Below the pieces are notes generated by a model that did no database searches, had not been told where the DNA came from, and saw only the letters and a program-made list of their open reading frames with translations. From positions 1-44,828 of IMG/VR virus record IMGVR_UViG_3300048615_000030: a stretch of 44,828 nucleotides of DNA; one strand, given 5' to 3'. Made by a program: the position numbers and the translations under genes. The DNA comes from a virus. Below, piece after piece: positions 7,203 through 44,828 of the stretch. The stretch's first letter is position 1. Each line of letters starts with the position of its first letter.

Positions 7203-8177
7203 TCATTCGACCGGAGCACCAACATCAAAGATCAGCGAACCAGCCTCCGAACCGACGACGGTTATTTGAGACTCCAACGGTGGGACGGAATCCTCCCGAA
7301 ACTCGAGGTACTCGTTCGGAGTGAACCCGAGCGCAGCAGCCACCAGTTCGACGGACTTCTTCTCACCCTCCGCTTTCGCAATCGCCGCATCCCGATCCCC
7401 GTCTGCACGTTCACGGACAGCCTGCGCCTCAGCAACAGCCACTTGGACGAGCCGTGCCGCCTCTGCCGCCTTCTGGTCCGCAATGATCTTTGCCTCAACG
7501 CTCTGAATGAAAGCGGGTGCGAAAACTGCGTCCTTGACGTTGACCGATTCGACAACAATCCCGTATTCAGCCAGACGGACCGTCAGCGCCTTGTGGACGG
7601 CTTCTGCGAGTGCGGCACGGTTCTGAGCGAAGTCGATCGCAGCGAACTGGCCGACCTCCTGCGTGACCAGTTGCAGGACCGACGGGGCGACGACCGTAGC
7701 CTGATAGTTCAACCCGACCGACTGGTACAACTCAGCAGCCTCACCAGGCTCCACATGCGTGATAACCGCGACCGGGACGGTCACCTCCTGCAGGTCGAGA
7801 GACTGCGGGTAGACCTCAACCTCGTAGACCTGAGAGCGCACGTTGACCATTCGGGCTGACTGCGCCCACGGGATCACAAACGACAACCCCTCGCCCCGTT
7901 CGACGGGGGAGACACCACCGGACACGCTGTAAATCGCCGCCCTGTGACCTGGAGGGGTAATCACCAGTGCTGGAAGGATGACGACTGCGGCTATCACACC
8001 GGCGAGCGCACGCCGTTTCGCACCAGCAGCGAGAGTCCGTCGTCCCTTACGTGTGACCCCGTCGGTTTCCGTGGGTTCACGGTGGGAGCCTTTAAATAAG
8101 ACCACCAGCACCCCGATTAGTGCGGCGACATAGAGAGCAGGCTGAACGAGAATTTCAAAGCCGTAGGACTGGAGCAT
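7203..8177 (-). CDS. SPFH / Band 7 (prohibitin, HflK/C-like) membrane protein.
   Basis: N-terminal hydrophobic segments are followed by GHRAAIYSVSGGV...GEGLSFVIPW...DLQEVTV...IVVESVNVKDAVFAPAFIQSVEAKIIADQKAAEA... and an Ala/Glu-rich coiled coil, as in prohibitins. Confidence 0.75.
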   Translation of the reverse strand: MLQSYGFEILVQPALYVAALIGVLVVLFKGSHREPTETDGVTRKGRRTLAAGAKRRALAGVIAAVVILPALVITPPGHRAAIYSVSGGVSPVERGEGLSFVIPWAQSARMVNVRSQVYEVEVYPQSLDLQEVTVPVAVITHVEPGEAAELYQSVGLNYQATVVAPSVLQLVTQEVGQFAAIDFAQNRAALAEAVHKALTVRLAEYGIVVESVNVKDAVFAPAFIQSVEAKIIADQKAAEAARLVQVAVAEAQAVRERADGDRDAAIAKAEGEKKSVELVAAALGFTPNEYLEFREDSVPPLESQITVVGSEAGSLIFDVGAPVE

Positions 8178-8551
8178 TAGAGCGCCTCCGCTGTCGTGCG
8201 GAAGAGTTCCGCTAGTTGTTGGCCCGCCTCGAACGGATCGTCAGGAAGGCTGTCGTCGTTGTAAGCGATCAAACCGCTCCACCACCCGACATGCGACATA
8301 AGGCGATTGTCGACAGCGTTTTCGGCATCCAGATAATCGTCCTCGGTCCCACCGAGAAGGCGCGTCGCCAGCACGAGAGAACCTTGGGCGCAACGGCGAG
8401 ATGCTGCTAATAAGGCCACCTCCTCCTCGGCGGCCTCGAGAACGCGGGACAGGCCGTACCCGCTGTCGTGAAACCAACTCCCTTTGCACCACATGCCCTG
8501 TTGCACGTCCTCGGCTGCCTTGAGCAGAATGTCTTTCGATTCGACGCTCAT
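8177..8551 (-). CDS. Hypothetical cytosolic protein.
   Basis: 124-aa ORF. Its stop overlaps the SPFH start by 1 nt, and its start overlaps the upstream stop by 4 nt. Confidence 0.55.
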   Translation of the reverse strand: MSVESKDILLKAAEDVQQGMWCKGSWFHDSGYGLSRVLEAAEEEVALLAASRRCAQGSLVLATRLLGGTEDDYLDAENAVDNRLMSHVGWWSGLIAYNDDSLPDDPFEAGQQLAELFRTTAEAL

Positions 8552-9057
8552 TCCTGGTCTCCTGTCGTAGTGGGTGGTGCTTCGTCGTCTCTGTCGAATC
8601 CTTCACGAGTGCCTGTCCGGGAGTAGTCGGGAGGGGCGATAATCCCGTCTCCGACCGCCACCGGCCGCGGGTAGGCATCACTCCACGCGTAAGTGATCCC
8701 GCCGTCCTTGACCAGCCACAATTGGTCGCGGTCGAAAATGCCTACGCAGTCGTTGGTCGACCCGTCGTCCCAACCGCCCGCCACGATTCCCTGGCATCCC
8801 CACCGGACACTGTCAGCAATCGACGGTGACTCGTTGTCATATGTGCTGGACGCGATACACGCGATGACTTCGGGATCGTCGAACTCAAACCCGTTGTTGA
8901 TACCGTGAAGACCGGCGCAGTAGTTCTCGGCCTGGGTGAGCGCTAGGGGCCGCAGGTTGTCGTCGAACAGCCGCCAAAAGTTGACCGGCCAAAACACGGC
9001 TATCCCACCACCCACCACCAGGAGCACTGAGAGAGCGAAGGCTGCTAGGCGTTTCAT
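8548..9057 (-). CDS. Signal-anchored or secreted Cys-containing protein.
   Basis: N-terminal MKRLAAFALSVLLVVGGGIAVFW, then four Cys residues and an acidic C-terminus. 4-nt overlaps on both sides. Confidence 0.55.
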   Translation of the reverse strand: MKRLAAFALSVLLVVGGGIAVFWPVNFWRLFDDNLRPLALTQAENYCAGLHGINNGFEFDDPEVIACIASSTYDNESPSIADSVRWGCQGIVAGGWDDGSTNDCVGIFDRDQLWLVKDGGITYAWSDAYPRPVAVGDGIIAPPDYSRTGTREGFDRDDEAPPTTTGDQE

Positions 9058-11813
9058 GCTGCCTCCATTCCCGCGAGCAGATCGTGGATTTCGACGCCGT
9101 CGACAGTGGACTGGACGTCGAGTAGAGCTGCTACCGCTTCGATCTGGTCGACCCGGTCAGACAGGAACAGGTCGGTCTCGTCGTAGAGACGTTGGAGGAG
9201 CCGGTTGACCGCGTCCTTCTGCTCGTCGGGTAGTTGATCGAACGGCAGTTTCGACACGGACAAGTACTCGTCCATCGCGAACCGGGCGACCATCCCAGCG
9301 GCCTGTTCGGTTGCCTTCTCCAAGTCCGACGACGGACCGGTCGACAGGTCCCCTTCGAAGAAGTGCCGTTCGGCCCATACTGAGGCGAGCGCCACTCGGA
9401 TGTCCGCTTCGATCTCAGACCGAGGCCGGGTGTGTCGTTCCTCAATCGGCGCTGACGACACCACACCCAGGTTCCGGTCTCGCATGACAATCGACGCATA
9501 CTGGATTTGGCTGCGCTGCCGGAAATGGTGTGCGACGACAGCATGCGATGCTTCGTGGAGGCAGACCCGACGGTGGTCGTCCTCGACTGTCTGACGGCCC
9601 CGGTCCTCTCCCATCCGCTTCCAAATCAGAGCTTCCCGGATGTCCTTCGCTGTGACTGTCGTTCGCTCTTCCCTGATCGTGGTGAGCAGCGCCTCATTCA
9701 CAATGTCCTTGATGGAGGCGCCGGTCGCTCCAGGGTTCTCCTTCGCCAGGGTTTGAATCTCCTGGTCGGTCACGTTGTGGTCGTCGAGTTTGGCGAGATA
9801 CCCGCGGAGGGTTTCGGCGATCCCGTCAGCGTTAGGCCGACCCACTTTGATATGCCGGTCGTACCGGCCCGGCCGCAACAATGCCGGGTCGAGGTCGTCG
9901 GCCCGGTTCGTCGCTCCCACGTGGAGAATCCGATAGTGGGGCGGAGGGACTGGTTCGAATCCGATCAGGACGCGGATCTTGTTGTACAGGCCGCGGGGTT
10001 TCGCCAGGCCGGACATTTCCGACAAGACCATCTGCAGTGCACCCGACCCGACACCACCGCCGGTTATCACCATCTCGTCTGACAAGCCGACCAACCGGCC
10101 GATAGTCGACAGGACAACCCGTGCGGCCTGTTCGAGAACCCCACCACCACGGGAGCCGAGAGCGTCTATCTCGTCGAAGAAGCAGTTGTGTGTTACGAAG
10201 CCATCGGCTACGAATGTCCTGGTCGACGTTTGGATGGAAACAATCGGGCCGTAGCCGACGGGTTCAATGGCCTCCACCGTCGCCCAAGAGTTGTTGGGCA
10301 GACGAGGTGGGTTGTCACCAGAAAAGACAGCGTGATATTGCTCCAATAGCCGCTGCGGGCGCACCATGCCGAGAAGCCGAAGCGACATCGGTAGGTTCGT
10401 CAGTTCATAGGTGTGTAGGTCACTGGTCGCGAGCCCGTGGGCCCCGGCCTTCCGCAGATACAACGAATATCCGAACCCTCGCCTGTCCAGTTCCTGACCG
10501 ATGCGCTGTTCGACCGGACCAACGTTTTGACTGATGCCGACGTTGAGCCCACGACCAACACCGCGAAAGTCTCGGCCGGTGATGTGCCCCTCGCCGTCGT
10601 ACATGCCAGCAAGCCATGAGTCGCCGTCCTCCGACTCCCAGGGATCGGCAAGCCACTTGATGTGGTCGCCTGGATTGAGCAGTAATGCGGGGCGCCAGAC
10701 GAGGCCGCCGTGGCGCTTTGGCGTTCCCAGCGGGTAGTCCCTTGCGAGAAACGGGTGTTCGCCGTTGACGACGATGCTTCCGCGGTCCGTGACCAGCCGA
10801 TACCGCTGGTCGGTCCGATGCTCTACTGCTTCAACAACCCCGAGCCTGGTCCGCCGCCCTCCGTGTTCGCGTTTCCCCTTCTCGTCAACACCGAAGATGC
10901 CATCCTCCGGCTGCAATGTGTCGGCCCGTACCCAACGAAGGTCATCGGTTAGTACGAGGGTTTCCGGGGCGACACAAACAACCCCGCCATGCTTCACCGA
11001 CAGTTTCCGCAAATGCCGGTAGAGCATTTTCACTTTCATGATCGGAACGCCGACGAACATGTTCGTGAACGATTCCGGCCCGACCGACACGAACGGCTTC
11101 CCGGTCTCCCCGGCCAACGCCTCGGCTAGGAGGCTCTTGCCAGTGCCCGGAGGTCCGACGAGAAGGAGACCGCCAGGCATGTACCCGCCGCGCTTCTCGA
11201 CCACTTCAGGGTTTTCGAGGAGGAACAGGTTCTCCCTCATACGTGCGACGGCCTTGTCCTGGCCGTACACGTCCGAGAACCGAGTGCGGATCGACGCCGG
11301 GTGGATGACCTGGTAGAGGTCCATCCGGGCGAGCACCCACATCATGAGGAACAGTCCTGCGAACCCCATCGCAATGTTGAGTGCCATGAACAGGATGGTC
11401 TGGAAGTTCTGAACGACGAGCGCTGGAATGGCTGTAGCGCATCCGATCGTGCCGGTGCACTTGTCGGTGGCACCGTCGATGAGATAGCCGAGAGCGACCG
11501 TCCAGAAGGCGTAGCGGACTATCCGGCCGATCCGATAACGGGAGTAGTCCGAGAAGCGACCTTTGCGTTTCTCCCACCGGGCTCGAAGGCGGTTGGTGGT
11601 CGCGTAGAAGTGGGTTGACTGTTCTTCTCCGTAACGGACGAACTCTTTCGCCACGTACAAGACGACGAGACCCCAAGTGATCTTCCCGACAGGGGATTGG
11701 AGGAACGGTGATGGCTGGCCGCGTTCGGCGATGAACGTGTAGACGAGCAGATAGGAGATGACACGGATGCGTTCGGTCCAATGGACGGGTGGGCGCAGGC
11801 GAATCTTGCTCAT
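9054..11813 (-). CDS. FtsH-like membrane AAA+ ATPase / M41 zinc metalloprotease, interrupted by an intein.
   Basis: The N-terminus has hydrophobic helices. The Walker A motif is GPPGTGKS. The Walker B motif VV|CFFDEIDALG is split by a 264-aa insert. Further FtsH-like stretches are ATNRADDLDPALLRPGRYDRHI, HEASHAVVAHH (HExxH) and a downstream AERHFF...STGPSSDLEKAT. Confidence 0.8.
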   Translation of the reverse strand: MSKIRLRPPVHWTERIRVISYLLVYTFIAERGQPSPFLQSPVGKITWGLVVLYVAKEFVRYGEEQSTHFYATTNRLRARWEKRKGRFSDYSRYRIGRIVRYAFWTVALGYLIDGATDKCTGTIGCATAIPALVVQNFQTILFMALNIAMGFAGLFLMMWVLARMDLYQVIHPASIRTRFSDVYGQDKAVARMRENLFLLENPEVVEKRGGYMPGGLLLVGPPGTGKSLLAEALAGETGKPFVSVGPESFTNMFVGVPIMKVKMLYRHLRKLSVKHGGVVCVAPETLVLTDDLRWVRADTLQPEDGIFGVDEKGKREHGGRRTRLGVVEAVEHRTDQRYRLVTDRGSIVVNGEHPFLARDYPLGTPKRHGGLVWRPALLLNPGDHIKWLADPWESEDGDSWLAGMYDGEGHITGRDFRGVGRGLNVGISQNVGPVEQRIGQELDRRGFGYSLYLRKAGAHGLATSDLHTYELTNLPMSLRLLGMVRPQRLLEQYHAVFSGDNPPRLPNNSWATVEAIEPVGYGPIVSIQTSTRTFVADGFVTHNCFFDEIDALGSRGGGVLEQAARVVLSTIGRLVGLSDEMVITGGGVGSGALQMVLSEMSGLAKPRGLYNKIRVLIGFEPVPPPHYRILHVGATNRADDLDPALLRPGRYDRHIKVGRPNADGIAETLRGYLAKLDDHNVTDQEIQTLAKENPGATGASIKDIVNEALLTTIREERTTVTAKDIREALIWKRMGEDRGRQTVEDDHRRVCLHEASHAVVAHHFRQRSQIQYASIVMRDRNLGVVSSAPIEERHTRPRSEIEADIRVALASVWAERHFFEGDLSTGPSSDLEKATEQAAGMVARFAMDEYLSVSKLPFDQLPDEQKDAVNRLLQRLYDETDLFLSDRVDQIEAVAALLDVQSTVDGVEIHDLLAGMEAA
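10185..10976 (-). mobile_element. Intein (264 aa) inserted immediately before the Walker B motif of the FtsH-like gene.
   Basis: It begins CVAPETLVLTD (Cys1) and has an internal GEHPF (block B His). WLAGMYDGEGH is LAGLIDADG-like. It ends FVADGFVTHN and is followed by the +1 Cys of CFFDEID. Removing it restores a contiguous AAA+ module. Confidence 0.8.
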
Positions 11814-12043
11814 ACGACGCTGCCCGCTTTCGCCTTCAACGCTGTCGTATCCTCAAGCCAGAGTTGGCCGGCCCACACACCGACAGCAGACCCGCCCCGC
11901 TCCACTTCAACCCGAATCCGGTAGTCCGCGCACTGACGGGTCACGGAACACTCCGAGCAGACAGCGAGTGCTTCGGCCACCGTCGCCTTGTCGTGGAAGA
12001 TGCGAGGGTCCACGTCAAGACAGGCCGCCTGAGCTCGCCACAT
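11810..12043 (-). CDS. whiB: WhiB-family (Wbl) Fe-S transcription factor.
   Basis: Four Cys in the pattern C-x(n)-C-x2-C-x5-C (ACLDVDP...CSECSVTRQC), then GVWAG. Start taken at ATG 12043 (GGAGAG 7 nt upstream; TGATG overlap). The stop overlaps the FtsH-like start by 4 nt. Confidence 0.75.
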   Translation of the reverse strand: MWRAQAACLDVDPRIFHDKATVAEALAVCSECSVTRQCADYRIRVEVERGGSAVGVWAGQLWLEDTTALKAKAGSVV

Positions 12044-12402
12044 CAGACGGCTCTCCATTCAGTCCGGAACACTTCCCCGTCCCGTGTTGTGATGCTCGCC
12101 CACTGGGATTCCGTCGTGGTCAGAAGCACCCGACGGGACACGACCAAGCTTCGCCGTCGCAGCCGGAAGAGAGTCGTGTAGATAGTCTCTGGCGTGATGT
12201 CCGGGAGAAGCATGCCGATCCCGTCGGGCGTCAGCCAGCCGCCATCCGTGACCAACACGTCGAGTATTCGTGCGGGGCCACCATCCGTCACCAACCCCCT
12301 GTTCTTCGGATTCGGTGGATTGTCACGCCGCCACATGTAGTAGCAGGACGAACACAATCCCCGAGCTGTCGTCGGACGGTCCGAGTGAGGGCAGACCATC
12401 AT
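12043..12402 (-). CDS. Zn-knuckle + wHTH-like protein; paralogue of 12399..12770.
   Basis: CPHSDRPTTARGLCSSCYYMWRR, then ILDVLVTDGGWLTPDGI, ending EWRAV. ATGA overlap at the start. Confidence 0.55.
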   Translation of the reverse strand: MMVCPHSDRPTTARGLCSSCYYMWRRDNPPNPKNRGLVTDGGPARILDVLVTDGGWLTPDGIGMLLPDITPETIYTTLFRLRRRSLVVSRRVLLTTTESQWASITTRDGEVFRTEWRAV

Positions 12403-12770
12403 CGTTTCGCCCTCCATTCCGCCCGGACTTCAAACCCGTACGGACCCCGAGTGTTCGACGAAGCCAGACCGACAGCACGATGTTCGGTCCGATCCTCCAA
12501 CGCGTCGTACAAGGCGTTCTTCACTTGGGCCGGAGTCATCACCCCGTCCAATTGGAGAGCGATACCCTCCGCTGTCAGCCAGCCGCCATCAGCCTCAAGA
12601 ACGTCGAGGACACGGTTCGACAGTTGCGCTTTCCGACCACGCCGGACCGGCACGAAAAGAGGGTCGCCGTAAAGGTTGAACCGCTTGTAGTGGAACCGGC
12701 AGTAGCCTTTAGCCGAATACGGTTCTGTGCAAAGGTCGACAGTGCACTCCCGTTTCGGATTCCGCTTCAA
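12399..12770 (-). CDS. Zn-knuckle + wHTH-like protein; paralogue of 12043..12402.
   Basis: CTVDLCTEPYSAKGYCRFHYKRF, then VLDVLEADGGWLTAEGI, ending EWRAKR. ATGA overlap with the HNH stop. Confidence 0.55.
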   Translation of the reverse strand: MKRNPKRECTVDLCTEPYSAKGYCRFHYKRFNLYGDPLFVPVRRGRKAQLSNRVLDVLEADGGWLTAEGIALQLDGVMTPAQVKNALYDALEDRTEHRAVGLASSNTRGPYGFEVRAEWRAKR

Positions 12771-13375
12771 CTTTCAAACCTTCGAACATGACTGTTCTCC
12801 TGATACGAGTCAGGACCACGAGCCGATATCGACGCTTCCGCTCTATGTGCATTGAGAAGCTCTGGATAGGTGTCGATTACCCACAGAGCCAGGTCGGCAG
12901 CGCGTTGGCCCCTCGGCTGTGGCACCACCCACAGCTCAAGGTTCTCAGGATGGTTGTCGTGGCGGATGCCGTTCTTGTGATGAACATCCTCAAAGTCAGC
13001 GAGTGGCCGACAGAGGACCCGCTCCATGATCAACCGGTGCTCTAAGACGTGCCGACCGTTGTGATAGACCACTCGGTAGCCGAGCGTGTTGACGTGTCCC
13101 GTGCCATTGGGGGCCTTGGACCGGATGGCCTCTTCGGGATCGACACGCCCTCGCAGACGCCACCTTCGATAATGTTGCTTACACCAACTCCGAGCGCTAA
13201 CCGGTTGGTCACAGTTCTCTACACTGCAAAGGGTCCCGGGCTCGTAGCGCTCACCTATGGGCTGCTCGGCGCGGACGTCGCCGTATCGTTGCCAACGGCT
13301 GTAATGAGCCTTGCACCAGCCCCTTGACGAGGGTGGCCGGTCACAGTCATCGACTGAGCAGGTAGGCTTGGACAT
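12767..13375 (-). CDS. HNH endonuclease with two N-terminal Zn-knuckle repeats.
   Basis: CSVDDCDRPPSSRGWCKAHYSRWQRYG and CSVENCDQPVSARSWCKQHYRRWRLRG, followed by GYRVVYHNGRHVLEHRLIME...VHHKNGIRHDNHPENLEL. ATG 13375 is preceded by TAGGAGG. Confidence 0.75.
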   Translation of the reverse strand: MSKPTCSVDDCDRPPSSRGWCKAHYSRWQRYGDVRAEQPIGERYEPGTLCSVENCDQPVSARSWCKQHYRRWRLRGRVDPEEAIRSKAPNGTGHVNTLGYRVVYHNGRHVLEHRLIMERVLCRPLADFEDVHHKNGIRHDNHPENLELWVVPQPRGQRAADLALWVIDTYPELLNAHRAEASISARGPDSYQENSHVRRFES

Positions 13376-13403
13376 GATCGGCCTCCTATGTAGGTCGGTC
13401 CAT

Positions 13404-13432
13404 GCCCCCGGCCGTATCCGCGGTGCGGGGGC
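13404..13432. terminator. GC-rich hairpin in the only sizeable gap of the early operon.
   Basis: GCCCCCG (13404..13410) pairs with CGGGGGC (13426..13432). TTTCTCT follows on the plus strand. Its function and the relevant strand are uncertain. Confidence 0.3.
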
Positions 13433-13467
13433 TTTCTCTGCCCTCCAATATAGTCGAACACCTGTTC

Positions 13468-13824
13468 TCATGGTATTCGCTCCGGACCGGTCCGAGCGAA
13501 GCTGGCCTCTTCGGTGGAGGCGCGCAAAAGGGTCTGAATCGCCGAAATCTGGGTCGATCTGGCGCGGACACTCTCGAGAGCAGCTCGTCGCATGCCCTCC
13601 GCTACGTCCCGCTTATACCGCAACCCCGCGGTCTGACCGTCTACTTGAGCTTCACGGAACCCCGCAGTCCCCTCAGTGTTCTCCACCCACGCACGCGCAC
13701 GAGCCTTCCGGTACGCCTGCTCTGCGGAGGCGACATCCTCAGCGGACGTTTGAAGCATCTCCAAGCCAGCGTTCAGAAGGTGCGAAAGGCGGCGGACTTC
13801 CTCGGCGGCTTCGGAGAGAATCAT
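13468..13824 (-). CDS. Hypothetical helical protein.
   Basis: 118-aa ORF. 4-nt overlap with the upstream gene. Confidence 0.5.
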   Translation of the reverse strand: MILSEAAEEVRRLSHLLNAGLEMLQTSAEDVASAEQAYRKARARAWVENTEGTAGFREAQVDGQTAGLRYKRDVAEGMRRAALESVRARSTQISAIQTLLRASTEEASFARTGPERIP

Positions 13825-43059: not shown

Positions 43060-44828
43060 TCATCCGACTTTCTCCCAGGGAGGAACATTCCAGTCCGCCC
43101 ACGGCACATCATTCCAACCGTCCGGAGCGAACGGCATCCCCGACATGTCCACACCCATATCCGCTATGAACTCCTGTTGAGCTCGGCGGATTACCTCCAT
43201 TGGGAACCAGGAAGCCATTACAAGATCGTTCTTATATCCGGTACGGTTCCGATTCTTCGGCGCGTTCGGATCGAAGTAGATGAGCTGCTTCCGGTACAGG
43301 TCGGTTTTCACGATCGACTTCGGATCGCCGTAAGGAAGGGTGATCTGCTTCTGAGCGAACAGGGGCGGCATGGCCGTAACCCCGATCCGCTTGTCGAACT
43401 TGTTCCGGTAAGTGTTCCACGCTTCCAAGCGGATGCCATGCCTGCTGGCGTACTCTCGGATCTGCTCGTCTTCGACAATGCCGCCGTGGTAAAGGTTCTC
43501 TTCGACCAGCCAGTGGCAACAATGGTACGACTCATACCATTCGCGAATTATCGCGTAGGCGTTGGGAATTCCCCCACCAGGACGGTTCTCGAGGTCGACC
43601 ATCCACATGTGCAGTTCGGGTCTGACCTGATACGCCCACAGGAACGACGCTTGGAACCCGGAGAAGGACGGGTCGAGACCGGCGACCAGGTTGACCGCTC
43701 CCACATCCGACTCGCCGTCCGACCGGATCGGCTTGGGAATACTGCCAACCACGTGCAGTTTGGACAGGCACGGGTCGACGATTTCTGCGGTGAAAGGCAT
43801 GAACCCTTCCGCCGACGGAAGGTTCTGGTAGAGCATGTCGAAGATGGCCTGTCCGCCGACCGTCTGAGACGACATTTTCTGATCCATCAGCCACCGGTAC
43901 GACCTGAGCGCCGGGAAAAGCATGCAGTCGACGTGCTCTCCGTAATGTTCGGGCTCTTCAGGGATTTTGCAGGCCGGATCGTGAGCATGCTCAACCACCT
44001 GGTCGTAAGCCGGATTCTCCAAAAGGTGGCCGCCCAGATCGTCAGGATGGGCACGAGATCCGATATAGAACAGGGCCGAATGTTCCTCTTTCCGAGAGTC
44101 CGGACCGGTAGTCCACCAGCGTCGAGTTTCCTCACGGGTCATCGGCTGGACCGTCGACTTCTCATCCTCAATGTCGTCGTTGACAATGAAATCCGTGTCC
44201 TGAGAACGGAGCCGTCCACCACGCCCGACCGCTTTCATCGTCGGCTGTTTGATCCCCGTCTGCGTCCGAGTGTCAACCGCGAATCTTTGCGACGACCATT
44301 TCCCGCCGAACTTGTCCGGTTTGAACCCAGACCCCGGAGGGCAGAAATCGCGGACCAGCTCCTCGTTGTTCTCGAGTTCGTCCATCACCTTCTCGACAGC
44401 CTGCTTCGCCAGCTCCTCGTTACCGCCCACCCAGATGATCCGGATGTTCGGAAACCGGCAGATCAGCCACACACACAAGGCGATAAGAAGCTCCGTCTTC
44501 CCATGACGAGGAGGAGACAAGATGACCAGCCGTCCGCCCGTGACCAGAGCATGAAGAATCCGCTCCAACCAGCGGAGCTGAAACGGAGGAGTCTTCCACT
44601 TCTCCCCCCGTTCAGTTCTGAAATACTCGTCCCGGAACCAGACGAAATCCTCCGTCAACGACGGAAGATCCCCAGCCGTCAGATCCCACAAGCTCACAGG
44701 GAAACGACGGGGAGGCGCCTCCCAATCCTCCGAAAGCTCCGCCTCCAAATCCCGGTGCTGCACCCACGCATACCACCGGTACACCGTCGTCACATCCACG
44801 TTGAACGCCCGAGCACAATCCTTCACAG
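43060..44828 (-). CDS. terL: Terminase large subunit, main body. Open at the window edge and continues at 128..398.
   Basis: 588-aa ORF with a P-loop-like SPPRHGKTE. Size and position upstream of the portal fit a terminase. No stop before the window end. The joined product is 679 aa. Confidence 0.8.
   Translation of the reverse strand, partial: VKDCARAFNVDVTTVYRWYAWVQHRDLEAELSEDWEAPPRRFPVSLWDLTAGDLPSLTEDFVWFRDEYFRTERGEKWKTPPFQLRWLERILHALVTGGRLVILSPPRHGKTELLIALCVWLICRFPNIRIIWVGGNEELAKQAVEKVMDELENNEELVRDFCPPGSGFKPDKFGGKWSSQRFAVDTRTQTGIKQPTMKAVGRGGRLRSQDTDFIVNDDIEDEKSTVQPMTREETRRWWTTGPDSRKEEHSALFYIGSRAHPDDLGGHLLENPAYDQVVEHAHDPACKIPEEPEHYGEHVDCMLFPALRSYRWLMDQKMSSQTVGGQAIFDMLYQNLPSAEGFMPFTAEIVDPCLSKLHVVGSIPKPIRSDGESDVGAVNLVAGLDPSFSGFQASFLWAYQVRPELHMWMVDLENRPGGGIPNAYAIIREWYESYHCCHWLVEENLYHGGIVEDEQIREYASRHGIRLEAWNTYRNKFDKRIGVTAMPPLFAQKQITLPYGDPKSIVKTDLYRKQLIYFDPNAPKNRNRTGYKNDLVMASWFPMEVIRRAQQEFIADMGVDMSGMPFAPDGWNDVPWADWNVPPWEKVG
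44702..44828. repeat. Terminal direct repeat copy 2, identical to 1..127.
   Basis: Same 127-bp string as the window start. Confidence 0.95.

Follow-up and report, generated by a model that had tools for sequence, protein, structure and literature searches.

What is the 264-residue segment that interrupts the Walker B motif of a predicted FtsH-like AAA+ protease in IMGVR_UViG_3300048615_000030, and can it still leave the protein and spread between alleles? The analysed window comprises the whole of this 44,828-nucleotide (nt) IMG/VR virus record, in which the segment occupies positions 10185-10976 on the minus strand. An earlier note, made from the letters alone, had proposed an intein splitting this motif. 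This work indicates that the locus is very probably a mobile class 1 intein, carrying a single-motif LAGLIDADG module, within the protease gene, with both self-excision and homing predicted from its sequence.

The insert lies within Walker B of an FtsH-like protease

The precursor gene (9054-11813, minus strand) is a single open reading frame (ORF) of 919 codons followed by a stop codon, with no frameshift or stop codon interrupting its 2757 nt. Pfam recognises an AAA domain (E value of 1e-18) with parts on both sides of the insert, and Peptidase_M41 (1e-21) further downstream, whereas the precursor scores 254 bits against the 600-bit cutoff of the NCBIfam model TIGR01241 (FtsH_fam). The host protein is therefore FtsH-like, rather than an equivalog of that model. 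Judged by these comparisons, it is a membrane AAA+/M41 zinc protease from a divergent phage and actinobacterial clade; a megablast search with the gene against 50,697 phage records returned no match.

The exteins were delimited by alignment to intein-less homologues and, for the C-extein, to solved FtsH structures. The N-extein (residues 1-279; 10977-11813) contains the Walker A motif GPPGTGKS (11133-11156) and ends in LSVKHGGVV, and the C-extein (residues 544-919; 9057-10184) begins with the +1 Cys of CFFDEIDALG and contains both the C-terminal part of Walker B (10170-10184) and the HEASH zinc site (9543-9557), all on the minus strand. Excising the insert in silico leaves a 655-amino acid (aa) protein in which Walker B reads VVCFFDE, as had been anticipated, and the best matches of this spliced sequence are solved FtsH proteins (best E value of 3e-56). 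Across Walker B, the spliced KHGGVVCFFDEIDALG pairs with KHAPCIIFIDEIDAVG of Aquifex FtsH without a gap; hence the insert enters the strand after the first of its hydrophobic residues and before the second. The exteins retain Walker A and the HEXXH motif, together with the pore-loop and arginine-finger regions.

Between these boundaries, the insert (precursor residues 280-543) reads CVAPETLVLTDDL...GPIVSIQTSTRTFVADGFVTHN, that is, CVAPETL...FVADGFVTHN, and is followed by Cys544 at the +1 position. The location, length and reading frame agree exactly with those first proposed, to which only the strand needed adding, and each of the diagnostic residues then named could be located in the translated ORF. 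Family conservation, described below, assigns these residues to intein blocks, all of which are on the minus strand. Cys280 of the precursor is the first residue and nucleophile of the intein, Cys1, in block A (CVAPETLVLTDDL; 10938-10976). The block-B-like GEHPF corresponds to intein residues 72-76, in an NGEHPF context, and lies in block B (DRGSIVVNGEHPFLAR; 10740-10787), which includes His74, with Asn71 at the position usually occupied by Thr or Ser. Blocks F and G (GPIVSIQTSTRTFVADGFVTHN; 10185-10250) end in the penultimate His263 and terminal Asn264, directly before the +1 Cys (FVTHN-C).

Intein-less relatives define the insertion site

A search of 5.8 billion clustered proteins identified approximately 40 relatives of 640-675 aa, sharing 50-75% identity with the host protein, and one 98%-identical intein-less protein, P0002. 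In every one, exactly residues 280-543 are missing, an agreement well beyond what chance would give, and the junction reads GGVV-(C/V)F(F/M/L)DEID, such that alignment to FtsH homologues places the insert boundaries where the earlier note had put them. P0002 is encoded on JGI contig Ga0395804_0001683 (L002), which is also an IMG/VR viral contig, and which is syntenic with the window and 88-96% identical to it at the nucleotide level over the aligned blocks. The alignment between them runs to the last codon of the N-extein and resumes at the +1 codon; as it breaks exactly at the extein ends, the 792 nt of the insert are cleanly missing from L002. The DNA of this allele reads GGAGTTGTC up to the insertion point and GTCTTCTTCGATGAGATC beyond it, and encodes the junction GGVV-VFFDEID, in which the +1 codon is GTC (Val), versus TGC (Cys) in the window. 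Hence the L002 allele cannot simply be equated with the empty site. The native +1 residue is nonetheless Cys, which is found in 36 of 41 close intein-less homologues.

The intein is carried by only this one of approximately 41 close homologues. A search for related loci in viral contigs returned the L002 contig again, and only that contig, and a degenerate DNA pattern for HN-CF(F/L/M)DEID revealed no second occupant of the exact site in the viral and metagenome contig collections. A single locus matched this pattern in the viral contigs, and the same contig was found in the metagenome contigs; it was rejected as a chance match, because the contig is AT-rich and has stop codons in frame.

The insert belongs to a large intein family with a HINT fold

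AlphaFold2 modelled the insert, from an input of 18 aligned sequences, with a predicted local distance difference test score (pLDDT) of 88 and a predicted template modelling score (pTM) of 0.87. When this model was compared with the PDB using Foldseek, the best matches were TliVMA (E value of 3e-8), PI-PfuI (5e-7), PI-SceI and mini-inteins, and the further HINT matches included PhoCDC21-1, DnaX, Prp8, Hedgehog, DnaB and DnaE. Altogether, 23 intein, Hedgehog or bacterial intein-like (BIL) structures were matched with E values between 3e-8 and 1e-3, identifying a HINT fold; LAGLIDADG nucleases ranked after these HINT proteins, with matches covering approximately 115 columns. Sequence comparison of the insert with PDB entries, using phmmer, gave only a weak match to PI-PfuI (E value of 0.77), on which the family profile improved. 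The first 79 residues also match the intein part of NF038136, a model of an intein-containing radical SAM protein (4e-7).

A HMMER scan of 1.84 billion cluster representatives recovered 2298 relatives with E values of at most 1e-3, and 1663 with E values of at most 1e-10, in which the whole 264-residue query was matched at very different positions within proteins of 280-2494 aa. The hosts, partly sampled by applying Pfam to 10 proteins, include PolA, RecA, class II ribonucleotide reductase, NinG, HD-domain, methyltransferase-like, TerL-like and DUF2201 proteins. Residue statistics were calculated from the 160 full-length copies in the top 150 proteins, which have a median intein length of 255 aa. 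All 160 begin with Cys1, 159 end in His-Asn, and each is followed by Ser (76 copies), Cys (48) or Thr (36) at +1. Block A positions P4, T6, L9, D12, L13 and W15 are at least 89% conserved, as are T250 (99%), T254 (100%), G259 (100%), H263 (99%) and N264 (100%) in blocks F and G; in block B, His74 is invariant, and position 71 is Ser in 63% of copies, Thr in 28% and Asn in 7%. In P0252, P0275 and approximately 25 other large proteins, the family is represented by two or three separate copies, each seen as a matched stretch.

Two other classifications of the insert were tried and ruled out. Class 3 inteins can do without an N-terminal nucleophile and have a Trp-Cys-Thr triplet that includes a Cys in block F; the insert is not one of them, as it starts with Cys1, has Gln249 at the block F position (Gln, Glu or Ser in the family), and has no Cys in SIQTSTRTF. 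Nor is it a BIL domain. Such Hint domains lie in variable regions of non-conserved proteins, usually with neither a +1 nucleophile nor ligation, whereas this insert interrupts Walker B in an enzyme that is conserved, and all members of its family have a +1 nucleophile. More generally, the insert might be a lineage-specific domain, BIL or another type of Hint, that is kept in the mature protein, or else a chimera generated by assembly. In keeping with this are the lack of any Pfam match to the insert and the origin of the window from a metagenome assembly. However, a HINT fold, Cys1, the terminal His-Asn and a +1 nucleophile are combined in 159-160 of 160 relatives in unrelated proteins; the site of insertion is within a catalytic beta-strand and not in a variable loop; comparison with L002 gives exact, in-frame boundaries; and the GC content of the insert (0.61) is like that of the exteins (0.60 and 0.62). 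A retained domain or chimera is therefore most improbable.

Splicing is predicted from the intein residues

The residues described above allow a splicing pathway to be proposed. The gene would be translated as a 919-aa precursor with its Walker B beta-strand interrupted (V-V, then C-F-F-D-E), and in this interrupted state the AAA+ site could not form. Firstly, Cys1 would undergo an N-S acyl shift, helped by the block B His74. Secondly, trans-thioesterification would occur to the +1 Cys544. Thirdly, Asn264 would cyclise, helped by His263. Fourthly, an S-N shift would release the 655-aa protease, with a native GGVVCFFDEID sequence, and a free 29-kDa intein; the ligated exteins would be joined in the predicted junction peptide HGGVVCFFDEIDALGSR.

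Several observations weigh against this reading. The intein and Hint models in Pfam were silent on the insert, and the TIGR01443 (intein_Cterm) model scored 15.1 bits on the last residues, against a cutoff of 15.6. As the curated models miss the insert or fall short, its membership of the inteins rests on fold, homologues and residues. Block B has Asn71 in place of Thr or Ser, and block F lacks the common Asp and His, although this is true of the whole family, including a relative that has been spliced experimentally. The nearest intein-less allele also has Val at +1.

The insert could thus be an intein by descent that has lost splicing, leaving the FtsH-like gene inactive or expressed only as a precursor, a loss that the phage tolerates. 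The minority residue at position 71, the atypical block F and the restriction of the insert to one of approximately 41 close homologues are all in favour of such a loss, as is the visible precursor left by the mycobacteriophage relative Pham3880-g in a reporter assay (PMC5050341). Yet none of the residues on which class 1 splicing is known to depend has been lost, all catalytic motifs of the exteins are kept, the reading frame is uninterrupted throughout, and the exteins differ from the intein-less L002 allele by 65 synonymous but only seven non-synonymous codon changes. Loss of splicing is consequently improbable. Residues, HINT fold, a near-identical empty allele, extein alignment and occurrence in unrelated hosts all agree with the intein that was first proposed to split this Walker B motif, and on these grounds the insert is a genuine and correctly delimited class 1 intein, with splicing predicted from its residues.

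The single LAGLIDADG module is a complete half-domain

The earlier note had also taken the single LAGLIDADG-like motif to suggest a decayed homing endonuclease. This motif, WLAGMYDGEGH, is present once (intein residues 121-131; 10584-10616), but it lies within a complete half-domain (intein residues 112-222; 10311-10643, minus strand), delimited using AlphaFold2, Foldseek and the family profile, which also contains Gln150 and Arg206-Pro207-x-Arg209. In the modelled secondary structure, these 111 residues form one complete alpha-beta-beta-alpha-beta-beta-alpha-alpha unit. When the module was modelled alone (pLDDT of 80), its top 50 Foldseek matches were all LAGLIDADG enzymes, including I-Tsp061I, I-CreI, I-AniI, I-DmoI and I-OnuI, with modest scores (TM-scores of approximately 0.5, E values of approximately 5e-3). 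By sequence alone, a profile of 32 modules matched the C-terminal half of I-AniI (4.6e-7), I-MsoI (1.6e-6) and PI-PfuI (4e-5). The family-profile search found one matched stretch per intein, and the chain studied here has a single half-domain, rather than two motifs.

Across the family, G124, D127, G128, E129, G130, Q150, P207 and R209 are 95-99% conserved, and R206 91%; individually, D127 is 98% conserved, E129 96%, and G130, Q150 and R209 each 99%. These values are close or equal to those of the splicing residues. Given the median length of 255 aa across 160 copies, the one-motif layout appears to be a stable design of the family. One relative differs: in P0159, residues 223-407 match only positions 1-158 and 234-264 of the query, with most of the LAGLIDADG module lost, and this protein is therefore a natural mini-intein derivative, and a true product of decay.

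The allelic comparison bears on whether this module has been mobile. Mismatches with L002 are unevenly distributed: of the 600 nt flanking the site, 45 are mismatched, compared with 30 of the remaining 1220 nt (Fisher p = 1e-6). Divergence is 7.5% within 300 nt of the site (window positions of approximately 9880-10184 and 10977-11280), compared with 2.5% elsewhere, and is almost all synonymous. A divergent flank tract is the pattern that co-conversion during homing from a diverged donor would give. In the proposed mechanism, alleles without the intein would be cut close to their Walker B codons by the endonuclease module, which probably acts as a homodimer in the manner of I-CreI, and repair from the intein-bearing copy would introduce both the intein and its flanking sequence. 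The intein-bearing gene and its 96%-identical intein-less allele constitute a natural pair, ready-made for testing both homing and flank co-conversion.

Other observations tell against active mobility. The raised divergence of the flanks could also come from recombination unrelated to homing. The LAGLIDADG helix (intein residues 119-130; 10587-10622) has a pLDDT of only 48-59 in both models, and is the sole low-confidence part of these otherwise confident predictions; this would fit a helix that becomes ordered only at a dimer interface, or may simply reflect the shallow alignment. A pseudo-palindrome at the insertion point has six of 11 complementary pairs, which places it in the top 4% of gene positions, and is not significant; nor is that at +9, with seven of 11 pairs, given the number of offsets that were tried.

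The decay of a two-motif endonuclease, leaving the intein immobile, has to be judged on this evidence. Structurally characterised intein endonucleases, such as PI-SceI, PI-PfuI and TliVMA, have two motifs per chain, against the one present here; the LAGLIDADG helix is poorly modelled; and this copy has no Lys clearly equivalent to K98 of I-CreI or K227 of I-AniI. Nevertheless, decay appears unlikely, if far from negligible, because the module is a complete half-domain and no fragment, its layout is stable across the family, and the putative active-site residues (D127, E129, G130, Q150, P207 and R209) are 96-99% conserved. Moreover, P0159 illustrates how different a truly decayed copy is, and the intein occurs sporadically, beside a near-identical empty allele with a divergent flank tract. 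Hence the single module is, on its sequence conservation, probably not decayed, and analogy suggests it to be a predicted I-CreI-like homodimeric homing endonuclease. If it is active as a dimer, this family-wide single-motif endonuclease would represent a compact scaffold combining intein and nuclease, and is the more interesting lead to emerge from this locus.

Antisense or out-of-frame endonuclease ORFs have been described within some actinophage inteins (10.1101/2025.01.02.630785). Four alternative-frame or antisense ORFs were scanned in the intein region, and none had a Pfam match.

Related inteins occupy staggered sites in other FtsH-like proteins

Among the best 150 of the 2298 relatives, five are in FtsH-like proteins: P0087 (L003 1020-3554), P0138, P0143, P0159 and P0141. 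In the first four, the site reads YG(A/S)-C(I/V)x(F/Y)(I/L)DE(I/L)D. These inteins interrupt the same Walker B strand as that in the window, but two residues upstream, where the canonical FtsH Cys occupies position -5 relative to the Asp (GA-CILFIDEID), whereas the intein studied here uses a Cys at -3 (VV-CFFDE). The site in P0141, TF-SDYWGQ, is instead at the start of the AAA module. These FtsH-hosted inteins are 41-47% identical to that in the window, making them its nearest relatives by identity. In a neighbour-joining tree of the inteins, calculated without bootstrapping and therefore only suggestive, the FtsH-hosted copies group together next to it. One intein lineage is consequently observed at three insertion sites in one protein family (-5, -3 and TF-SD).

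The idea that an insertion site of this FtsH type had not been catalogued stands for the searchable literature, but in metagenomic data inteins related to this one occur in at least five other FtsH-like proteins, in four cases two residues upstream. We tentatively propose that this is a very large and compact family, of approximately 255 aa per intein, in which a single I-CreI-like half-domain must homodimerise to cut, unlike two-motif monomers, and that the staggered FtsH Walker B sites (Cys at -5 and Cys at -3) record one lineage shifting to wherever a Cys codon was available; this is a possibility to which we would give somewhat less than even weight.

The intein is encoded by a complete phage genome

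The first 127 nt of the window are an exact direct repeat of the last (1-127 and 44702-44828). L002 aligns across the window ends, with L002 8642-11125 corresponding to window 2485-1, and L002 10999-11820 to window 44828-44007. The end repeat and the alignment across the join therefore indicate that the phage genome, of approximately 44.7 kb, is complete and either circular or terminally redundant. Genes in the window include those for a large terminase, a major head protein and, at 1475 aa, a probable tape measure protein.

The genes neighbouring the protease are also on the minus strand. Directly upstream is a WhiB gene (11810-12058; Pfam E value of 1e-10), beyond which are two paralogous Cys-rich proteins of 123-124 aa, sharing VLDVL..DGGWLT...EWRA (12043-12417 and 12399-12770), and a 234-aa protein (12767-13471) in which CxxxxC...GxCxxHY motifs recur and HNH_3 is matched below threshold; this last protein may be a free-standing homing endonuclease. 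Three genes follow that of the protease: one for a 169-aa protein that is hydrophobic over part of its N-terminus (8548-9057), one for a DUF6197 protein (8177-8551) and one for a Band_7/SPFH protein (7203-8177; Pfam E value of 2.6e-27). The same order, from protease to Band_7/SPFH protein, is observed in L002. Bacterial FtsH works with the SPFH proteins HflK and HflC, which raises the possibility that this phage brings a protease-plus-SPFH module of its own.

Among cellular proteins, the relatives of the protease come from actinobacteria, and the terminase shows a distant relationship (25%) to Streptomyces phage terminases. Together with the WhiB gene, these relationships suggest an actinobacterial host. 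The source is an uncultured tailed phage that probably infects such a host.

Comparison with known systems

Inteins in ATPases are well established, and no published FtsH intein was found in the searchable literature, including the main text of the bacterial and archaeal survey, and of the 2016 mycobacteriophage and 2025 actinobacteriophage surveys; FtsH and inteins were co-mentioned only in relation to unrelated genes. Hence this is an intein of a known kind, an ordinary example from a large family, with a host protein and an insertion site that are both new. FtsH-like AAA+ proteases thereby join the list of intein hosts, and another intein is added to those inside nucleotide-hydrolysis motifs, fitting their known clustering in ATPase active sites. 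In practice, annotation of the gene should give a 655-aa protease and an intein, rather than a 919-aa protein. The general understanding of inteins is left as it was; it is the single-motif endonuclease design, and the staggered sites within one beta-strand, that are worth following.

The most informative comparison is with the 'terminase' of cluster C mycobacteriophages (Cali gp243, Rizal, Spud and others), to which the insert is 31% identical over the whole intein (E value of 1e-30). The cluster C1 terminase-like intein is Pham3880-g (Cali gp243 and ScottMcG gp245; Kelley et al. 2016, PMC5050341), and that of ScottMcG gp245 spliced in an MBP-intein-GFP reporter (PMC5050341). It shares with the intein in the window the start CxxP(D/E)TxVLTxDLRW and the end TxxxA(D/E)G(L/F)xTHN, as well as the motifs (Y/W)LAG(F/M)xDGEGH and LGT(I/V)RPxRLL. 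Pham3880-g is likewise compact, has a single LAGLIDADG motif, and is borne by phage in an actinobacterial system, although its +1 residue is Ser, rather than Cys.

The insertion site is comparable to those of the Walker B or P-loop inteins of mycobacteriophage TerL1-e, archaeal MCM (sites d and e) and cyanobacterial PolIII gamma/DnaX, and the host to archaeal LonB, an AAA+ protease that contains inteins, as described in the surveys (Novikova et al. 2016, PMC4760082; Kelley et al. 2016). As here, the TerL1-e, MCM and PolIII gamma inteins lie in or beside Walker B, such that the active site can be assembled only through splicing. The likeness of these four systems is one of site and host type; the host here is instead an FtsH-like AAA+/M41 protease.

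The endonuclease module, in turn, resembles I-CreI, I-MsoI and the half-domains of I-AniI and I-OnuI, which similarly have one alpha-beta-beta-alpha-beta-beta-alpha half-domain per chain. They also share with it a conserved acidic residue that closes the motif, and a conserved Gln following the second strand. However, these enzymes are free-standing or intron-encoded, whereas here the half-domain is embedded in an intein, and both its dimerisation and its DNA cleavage are predicted.

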